DNA from: a virus
Lineage: Monodnaviria > Loebvirae > Hofneiviricota > Faserviricetes > Tubulavirales > Inoviridae
Length of the DNA stretch: 7,781 bases
Strand: one strand, 5' to 3'
IMG/VR virus record: IMGVR_UViG_2529292923_000001
Shown here one piece after another: positions 4,390-4,560 of the stretch (position 1 is the first letter of the stretch; each line of letters opens with the position of its first letter). The notes beneath the pieces were generated by a model. It was given only the letters and a program-made list of their open reading frames with translations, had not been told where the DNA came from and made no database searches. Made by a program: the position numbers and the translations under genes.

Positions 4390-4560
4390 TCACCAGTAAA
4401 AACTAAATGGTTTTACAATTCGACGGAAATCCTGATCGGCTTTTTCAAGAATAACTGAAACAACATATTCTTCAATGGTTGTATTTTTATTGTAAATAAT
4501 TCTTTCTATCTGCTCGATAGTGTATTCTGGCAATTTAACTTTAAATTCTTGAGTAGACAT
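4390..4560 (-). CDS. hypothetical 56-aa hydrophilic protein between the major coat gene and pIII
   Basis: ATG at 4560 preceded by GAGGT with about 4-5 nt spacing. Encodes [56 protein letters not shown]. The stop TGA (4390-4392) lies 5 nt before the pIII ATG. Below the ORF-track size cutoff. Confidence 0.45.

Follow-up and report, generated by a model that had tools for sequence, protein, structure and literature searches.

In the Ff phages, expression of gene III depends largely on transcripts that read through a rho-independent terminator located after the major coat gene. To our knowledge, no gene lies between this terminator and gene III in M13, fd or f1. Temperate inoviruses change how pathogenic bacteria behave; of the small accessory genes that they carry, most are uncharacterized or even unannotated. 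Small membrane peptides have been described from Pf inoviruses, namely PfsE (PMC8764522) and PftP4 (PMC11769263), and the Pf4 antitoxin PfiA, which belongs to a true toxin-antitoxin pair, controls phage production (PMC13048266). The Pseudomonas inovirus PMBT54 encodes an omega-like ribbon-helix-helix (RHH) putative regulator, ORF13, assigned by similarity to plasmid omega repressors and proposed to serve episome maintenance (PMC10534721). Among the enterobacterial inoviruses, the UPphi group is IKe-like and carries GGGES repeats (PMC7307601).

Here, we analyzed a 7,781-base stretch of DNA (the window), an inovirus genome read on the minus strand, and within it a short reading frame, ORF56, which in this E. 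coli inovirus prophage is placed between the coat-gene terminator and the gene for a pIII-like adsorption protein (Table 1). Judged from its predicted structure, ORF56 most likely encodes a small RHH DNA-binding protein made together with pIII. A search of 50,697 deposited phage records with the window gave no nucleotide match; identity with the UPphi group was rejected on this ground and on the IKe-like character and GGGES repeats of that group. The nearest deposited phages, uncultured inoviruses sampled from human and lemur saliva, had Zot proteins with 45–50% identity. Of 5,426 complete E. coli genomes, 27, nearly all human-derived, contained the phage as an integrated and often tandem prophage. 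Several genomes carried two to four copies, and strain E700025 held a tandem prophage (L001 4274-11363 and 12208-15933); tandem or multiple copies are typical of integrated inoviruses.

Table 1. Features of the window, with nucleotide identities between the two ORF56 clades (A, the window type, and B) and between L011 and L017, two copies of clade B. The divergence island is from sliding identity against L011, and per-gene identities are from five lineages.
Feature	Position	Strand	Clade A vs B	L011 vs L017	Remarks
71-aa protein gene	6996-7211	plus			phrog_2503; divergently transcribed
Rep_trans/RstA-like initiator	5468-6694	minus			33% identical to CTXphi RstA
111-aa protein	5123-5458	minus			PHROG of unknown function; putative ssDNA-binding role, from its position
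Small hydrophobic 44-codon ORF	4984-5118	minus			upstream of the coat gene
Major coat protein gene	4695-4943	minus	94%	97%	82 aa, ATG at 4943; phrog_2186 virion structural protein, 4e-14
Intrinsic terminator after major coat gene	4653-4680	minus			GGGCGGA-UAU-UCCGCCC + U7
ORF25	4567-4644	minus	77-79%	96%	25-codon hydrophobic micro-gene (MFDFIFMMFGSLCGLCCVIGFKSNL); first cistron after the terminator
ORF56 Shine-Dalgarno, GAGG	4565-4568	minus			read from sequence; 4 nt 5' of the ATG
ORF56	4390-4560	minus	56-58%	87%	56 codons, ATG to TGA; predicted ribbon-helix-helix protein
pIII-like Shine-Dalgarno-like element, GGTGAT	4389-4394	minus			across the last sense codon and stop of ORF56
pIII-like adsorption protein gene	2862-4385	minus	64% (N-terminal 330 codons)	91% (N-terminal 330 codons)	phrog_7187; (GTGS)n/(GT)n linker
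DUF2523/pVI	2503-2787	minus	96-98%	95%	
Zot/pI	1766-2491	minus	91-93%	96%	
Secretin/pIV	253-1533	minus	93-94%	97%	
Divergence island between clades	3240-4620	minus	48-87% per 60-nt bin		flanks 90-100%

Relative to the intact RefSeq copy L001, the window differs at positions 243, 306, 1596, 1756, 1785, 2784, 2964 and 4993 by seven single-base indels and, within Zot/pI, a 99-bp deletion. The reading frames of pIV, pI and pVI are thereby disrupted, as are the small pre-coat ORF and the 3' end of gene III, which loses the C-terminal anchor; either this prophage copy has decayed or its assembly is error-prone. The pIII-like gene, frameshifted near its 3' end in the window, extends in intact relatives to the equivalent of about 2809. 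ORF56 of the window is identical to that of L001. The major coat gene gave a weak Phage_Coat_B match and corresponds to a RefSeq CDS of 249 bp. Upstream of it, the 44-codon ORF is truncated by the 1-nt indel at 4993. The 57-aa form (...FCFFLGMIISTIWSLIRRL) in L011 (181-354) resembles the Ff tip proteins pVII and pIX in its single hydrophobic segment and basic C-terminus, and carries no RefSeq annotation. The Gly/Thr/Ser linker of the pIII-like protein (about 3130-3470, minus strand) varies in length among copies at an insertion point at 3297, being 54 bp longer in L001 than in the window and even longer in L002 and L011. The pattern resembles the repeat slippage reported for gene III of other enterobacterial inoviruses (PMC7307601).

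One structural module was joined to two unrelated replication/integration modules, with the boundary at about 5100, at the start of the pre-coat small ORF (window 5100-7781 compared with L002–L004 5900-9400 and L013 5400-8450). The module of the window comprises the Rep_trans/RstA-like initiator and the divergently transcribed 71-aa protein, and the other has a replication endonuclease of the Phage_GPA type, beside which L002–L004 carry an IS110-family transposase. Upstream of the 71-aa gene, at 6880-6970, two copies of CGCATGCGC lie 43 nt apart and two of ATAATCAC(A/C)TT lie 61 nt apart, and these repeats are candidate operators of the lysogeny switch. Paralogy between ORF56 and the 71-aa protein was rejected (hhalign probability 0.1%). 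At the end of the window (7716-7777), nested inverted repeats with a perfect 14-nt stem (AAAAGGCCGCTGCG ... CGCAGCGGCCTTTT) might represent a terminator; alternatively, they might be a structured element close to the junction or attachment region of the prophage. No Rfam families were found in the window.

A preliminary description of this DNA had listed a hydrophilic 56-aa reading frame with a good ribosome-binding site, and both are present, the former with a GRAVY of -0.38 and the latter as GAGG. This element shares bases with the TGA stop of ORF25, and the spacing of 6 nt from that TGA to the ORF56 start codon was kept in both clades; in clade B the Shine-Dalgarno is weaker (GAG). The description as charged and non-membrane also agreed with our data, as the protein has 8 K+R, 9 D+E and a pI of 5.3, and its top 19-residue hydropathy of 0.43 indicates that there is no membrane segment. 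No signal peptide was found. The stop codon (4392-4390) is separated from the pIII-like ATG at 4385 by 4 nt, instead of the 5 nt first reported, and GGTGAT is likely the Shine-Dalgarno of gene III. In clade B the pIII-like start is a GTG, preceded by GGGGGTGG, that overlaps the ORF56 stop as GTGA. Just 5' of this GTG a run of G slips (L011 905-937, L013 9165-9183, L017 9165-9183), which shifts the ORF56 stop between the overlapping GTGA and a TAA 11 nt further on. RefSeq/PGAP calls ORF56 as WP_000107046.1, 'hypothetical protein', in some genomes and leaves it uncalled in others, so that its earlier labeling as unannotated is correct for the latter genomes only.

ORF56 does not directly follow the coat terminator, as had been supposed, because ORF25, missed in the earlier description, intervenes. 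The terminator hairpin (4660-4676, with U7) had a folding energy of -18.9 kcal/mol (z -3.4), and none of 200 shuffles folded as well. It is a perfect inverted repeat kept in L002, L013 and L017, and an equivalent hairpin is present in L023, a more distant E. coli prophage. The position of this intrinsic terminator implies that the genes downstream are reached by read-through, and the interval between terminator and ORF25 leaves no room for a promoter. A weak sigma-70-like match within ORF56 (4496-4467), whose -10 hexamer overlaps the inverted repeat TTGAAGAATA-N12-TATTCTTGAA, was rejected as an internal promoter or operator: promoter-like matches were not enriched (2 found against 3.0 expected), the repeat was matched by 21% of shuffles and was not kept in clade B, and L013 had no forward-strand promoter-like site. 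Repeat and promoter scans around ORF56 gave nothing above chance or conserved between the clades. RNA structure masking the start of ORF56 or gene III was likewise rejected (z -2.0 to +0.8, not significant). In L017, the ORF56 allele contains a 16-nt, 88%-complementary inverted repeat (9075-9136; GAATATCACGGTTAGC-N30-GCTGACCGTGATTTTC) that exceeded 300 of 300 shuffles and was not kept in other alleles.

ORF25 itself is strongly hydrophobic (GRAVY 1.52) and conserved. All five of its substitutions relative to L002 were synonymous third-position changes, and omega was 0.06 against L011 of clade B. Its equivalents lie at 662-739 in L011 and at 8562-8651 (minus strand) in L023, where a 29-aa homologue occurs without ORF56; ORF25 is thus more widely conserved than ORF56. 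This distribution weakened the idea that the two genes form a toxin-antitoxin-like cassette. None of the four RefSeq records inspected annotates ORF25. It is probably a small inner-membrane or virion-tip protein, and could equally be a pVII/pIX-like protein of the virion tip. PfsE and PftP4 are analogues of ORF25 only: all are hydrophobic inovirus peptides of 25–33 residues co-transcribed with structural or assembly genes, a likeness of size, hydrophobicity and setting with no sequence relationship seen.

An exhaustive HMMER search of 1.84 billion representatives returned a single divergent homologue of ORF56 (P0005, 46% identity, E 8.5e-8), and a later profile search added about 20 more distinct proteins, all of E. 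coli or metagenome origin. The resulting family of about 22 distinct proteins falls into two clades with 43–50% protein identity between them. Clade A proteins end in FSFYW. Clade B proteins begin with MQQTEIRLQIP and end in FSFDF followed by a variable tail, whose extreme C-terminus differs among members (GG, GR, GRLL, GGWS, GGGREIK and others). At every recovered locus ORF56 lay between a coat gene of about 83 aa and a pIII-like gene. Among 28 copies, taken from complete genomes, draft assemblies, metagenomes and IMG/VR contigs, 27 had an intact ORF56, and the lone exception was a metagenome contig at 1.2x coverage that also had an indel in ORF25.

ORF56 is short and AT-rich, lacks a database family and is skipped by PGAP in several genomes, all of which would suit a functionless chance ORF. 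Against such an origin, a given frame has, by our calculation, a chance of about 1% of being open over 56 codons at 30% G+C, and the frame remained open between the clades despite differences at 73 of 168 nucleotide sites (43% divergence), while the five other frames all carried stops and had omega values of 0.45–1.0. Between-clade pN was 0.36 and pS 0.72, giving an omega of about 0.2 with dS saturated. Within clade B, 11–12 synonymous and 9–10 nonsynonymous differences likewise gave an omega of about 0.2. With its conserved synteny and confident fold prediction (see below) also taken into account, we assign the chance-ORF reading a negligible probability and consider it effectively excluded. 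On this comparative evidence, ORF56 is a real, conserved gene, and the reading frame, whose loss in relatives had been named beforehand as a sign against a gene, was kept.

Selection was uneven along the protein and between the clades. Within clade A, the comparison with L002 gave 6 nonsynonymous changes and 1 synonymous change, and across all alleles of the clade we counted about 12 nonsynonymous and 4–5 synonymous changes. The substitutions were conservative (V/I, I/L, E/Q, A/S), with none in the tail. The predominance of nonsynonymous changes suggests that recent constraint on residues 8–41 is weak in this clade. An overlapping alternative frame was rejected as the cause of the first-position substitutions in clade A, since stops close that frame in the window. 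The C-terminal motif DxDFRx(I/V)VKPFSF was nearly invariant in the family, but the codons used for it differ between the clades and include an AGT/TCT serine switch. Hence, the constraint acts on the protein and not on the ribosome-binding region of gene III.

This last point bears on the idea that ORF56 acts mainly in cis, as a translational-coupling leader that brings ribosomes to the gene III start, its peptide being nearly functionless. Small-gene translational coupling is established in Ff phages, for example from gene V to gene VII, and the junction fits it in both clades, with the ORF56 stop 4 nt before the gene III start or overlapping it and the gene III Shine-Dalgarno within the 3' end of ORF56. 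However, the purifying selection on the amino acids and the preservation of the tail through synonymous changes would not be expected of a mere leader, nor would a confident, well-defined predicted fold. The gene III start is moreover unmasked by RNA structure (z +0.2 and +0.8), and in L023 gene III has its own Shine-Dalgarno and ORF56 is absent. We therefore consider a purely cis-acting role very improbable.

The distribution of ORF56 marks it as accessory and lineage-specific, confined to a small set of temperate inoviruses of E. coli. Among the relatives compared, the full gene of 56–64 codons was confined to the phage group of the window. In L023, whose pVI is 68% identical at the nucleotide level, the coat gene is followed by a terminator, a 29-codon ORF25 homologue (MSQSLFDIVIFVFGSVCGFSAVLGFSFSR), ATG-ACT-TAA and the gene III Shine-Dalgarno, and the gap between the coat gene and gene III measures 51 nt in Inovirus D_HF5_61 and 83 nt in Dulem virus 52, which are gut inoviruses more distant than L023. 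ORF56 is thus not a core inovirus gene, and this nested series of relatives without it indicates an add-on. ORF56 also sits in the G+C trough of the phage (29–30%, against about 43%). A tblastn search with ORF56 gave no match in the 50,697 phage records and none among plasmid records, the family was absent from 185,579 GTDB species representatives in two scans, and a metagenome scan found it on five contigs only. The suggestion of an accessory protein in the preliminary description was therefore borne out by the absence of the gene from L023 and the nearest deposited inoviruses and by its place in the G+C trough; the further suggestion of a regulatory role is supported so far as a DNA-binding fold is predicted, and control of pIII expression or an action on the host would be candidate roles.

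Per-gene identities (Table 1) mark ORF56 as the fastest-diverging gene in the structural module. It lies in an island of divergence that also takes in the 3' end of ORF25 and, in the pIII-like gene, about 380 N-terminal codons. This pattern of sequence identity indicates that ORF56 and the variable N-terminal part of pIII, presumably the receptor-binding part by analogy with Ff, are exchanged together as a cassette. The links to pIII demonstrated for ORF56 are physical only, consisting of the abutting or overlapping stop and start codons, the Shine-Dalgarno inside its 3' end, and the co-divergence. Clade A alleles occurred both with the Rep_trans module, in the window, and with the Phage_GPA and IS110 module, in L002–L004. 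The occurrence of the same allele with two unrelated modules makes a target in the replication/lysogeny module unlikely, and the target could more likely be in the structural module or the host chromosome. A more specific proposal, to which we give only a small chance, is that ORF56 is a specificity-linked factor matching the receptor-binding N-terminal domains of pIII and exchanged with them as a cassette. One possibility would be an RHH repressor that shuts down a host receptor or entry function, i.e., transcriptional superinfection exclusion; another would be a fast-evolving anti-defense protein acting via the conserved tail. If true, a specificity-linked ORF56 would represent a new class of inovirus accessory function within the virion operon.

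Homology and structure prediction, the two routes to a function proposed at the outset, gave different answers. Sequence libraries returned no significant match. Pfam searches with five ORF56 members found no RHH family at E <= 10, and the sole Pfam match was HTH_40 (E 0.017–0.026, below its cut-off), an identity that was set aside because the fold search indicates RHH and not HTH. PHROGs gave nothing significant, only 'transcriptional regulator' or 'repressor' families at E 0.03–0.13, and NCBIfam, PADLOC and a phmmer search of the PDB gave no significant match. Structure prediction, in contrast, yielded an RHH fold. With a 21-sequence alignment, AlphaFold2 gave a model with a pLDDT of 81.6, an extended N-terminus and two helices; the alignment spans just two clades, so that the model rests on little diversity. 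The single-sequence model was too poor for use (pLDDT 60). The predicted elements are an extended strand at about residues 5–11, a helix at 12–25 and a helix at 29–49; this matches the RHH core, a compact domain of about 45 residues in which an N-terminal strand is followed by helix A, a tight turn and helix B. In the monomer model the N-terminal segment is extended and unpaired, as an RHH protomer would be.

In Foldseek searches of the PDB and BFVD, the top matches were almost all RHH proteins (probability 0.9–0.99), including Arc, CopG, AmrZ, PutA, NikA, antitoxins and phage repressors. The individual E-values of 0.06–1 are weak, as expected for a protein of about 45 residues. A profile search of the PDB aligned ORF56 residues 5–40 to Arc 9–44, the RHH core, with a non-significant E of 0.75, and this profile alignment puts the register in agreement with Arc 9–15 and 30–32. 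In the family alignment A3, the strand follows the pattern E5-(F/I)-(K/R)-(V/I/L)-(K/Q)-(L/I)-P11, with alternating hydrophobic and polar residues and a proline end. Preceding helix 2 is N26-x-T28, with N26 and T28 invariant in this alignment; the metagenome allele L025 has N26S. Together, the structural matches and sequence hallmarks file ORF56 structurally in the RHH superfamily. The ORF56 family is a new sequence family with a known fold, in an unusual position and in a rare phage group.

Taking these observations together, we give somewhat better than even chances to the reading that ORF56, as a whole, is an accessory RHH protein and probably a sequence-specific DNA-binding regulator co-made with pIII. 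The protein would be a cytoplasmic RHH protein of about 6.9 kDa, according to the model. Dimerization, DNA binding and a regulatory role are inferred from analogy with the superfamily: ORF56 would form a homodimer whose paired N-terminal strands, with E5, K/R7 and K/Q9 facing outward, may insert into the DNA major groove, and its job would most likely be sequence-specific DNA binding as a small transcriptional regulator. It would be made only from transcripts that read through the coat terminator, on which it would be the second cistron, after ORF25 and ahead of genes III, VI, I and IV in that order. As its stop abuts or overlaps the gene III start, its synthesis would be tied to that of pIII.

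The most conserved part of ORF56 is the C-terminal tail and not the strand predicted to read DNA, which makes a protein partner at least as likely a ligand as DNA. The RHH domain might accordingly serve mainly for dimerization, with the tail binding a protein partner, a reading that we regard as unlikely but with a real chance of being right. ORF56 could then be an adaptor binding a phage or host protein, or an orphan antitoxin-like or anti-defense factor that neutralizes a toxin of the host or a competitor. The latter variant has to contend with the immediate neighbors of ORF56, which are ORF25, kept independently of ORF56, and the pIII-like gene, with no adjoining toxin gene and hence no toxin-antitoxin pairing. 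PADLOC and NCBIfam gave no toxin or antitoxin match at the locus. In addition, TacA- and AtaR-type antitoxins have toxin-binding regions much longer than this tail of about 11–14 residues.

A third role would be that of an assembly factor linking double-stranded DNA, for example a hairpin of the packaged genome, to the pIII/pVI end of the virion or to the pI ATPase as assembly terminates. Such a factor would account for ORF56 traveling with the N-terminal cassette of pIII, with which it co-diverges, and for its location in the structural/assembly operon, coupled to gene III. There is also a parallel in conjugation, where the RHH accessory proteins TraM, TraY and NikA link DNA to secretion ATPases, NikA being among the Foldseek matches of ORF56. 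Nevertheless, related inovirus prophages with the same module architecture lack ORF56 altogether, which would tell against this role if those prophages are functional, the N-terminal domains of pIII are periplasmic whereas ORF56 has neither signal peptide nor membrane segment, and no conserved hairpin target was identified. We consider this role improbable, and assembly-adaptor and purely cis-acting roles are both less likely than that of a DNA-binding regulator.

Human isolates, among them O166:H15 strains and isolates from stool, account for many of the genomes with the ORF56 prophage. At the junction between the coat gene and gene III of this phage, annotation pipelines miss or inconsistently call two conserved micro-genes, ORF25 and ORF56. 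The present analysis turns a sub-threshold ORF into a defined, testable gene with a predicted DNA-binding fold and a conserved peptide motif that can be mutated, and nature offers two alleles that co-vary with the adsorption protein as well as relatives without the gene. Should ORF56 have no measurable effect, it would be an ordinary phage 'moron'; the co-divergence with the N-terminal part of pIII is the one feature that may raise it above that status.

In comparison with described RHH proteins, ORF56 resembles Arc, Mnt of phage P22 and CopG of plasmid pMV158 in its size class of about 45–55 residues and strand-helix-helix order, and in a strand that alternates hydrophobic with polar or basic residues, ends in proline and is accompanied by N-x-T before helix 2. 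Unlike these proteins, it has no significant sequence similarity or Pfam RHH match, carries an extra conserved C-terminal motif, is encoded in a virion/assembly operon and not in an immunity or copy-control locus, and had no operator identified in scans near the gene. From the RHH antitoxins (TacA/DUF1778, AtaR, KacA, ParD, RelB and CopA of prophage CP4So) it differs in having no adjoining toxin gene, a far shorter tail than the type II antitoxins and no antitoxin or defense HMM match. Like PMBT54 ORF13, ORF56 is a predicted RHH protein of a filamentous phage; the genomic position is different, and no PMBT54 protein was among the recovered homologues. The Ff order of gene VIII, terminator and gene III has its counterpart in the hairpin architecture found here, and the gap without a gene in D_HF5_61 and Dulem virus 52 agrees with the Ff layout. 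Unlike in Ff, two small cistrons, ORF25 and ORF56, intervene between the terminator and gene III and are chained to the latter, and control by ORF56 of gene III, of virion release or superinfection, or of host genes would, if it occurs, constitute a late-operon regulatory layer that is missing from the Ff paradigm.
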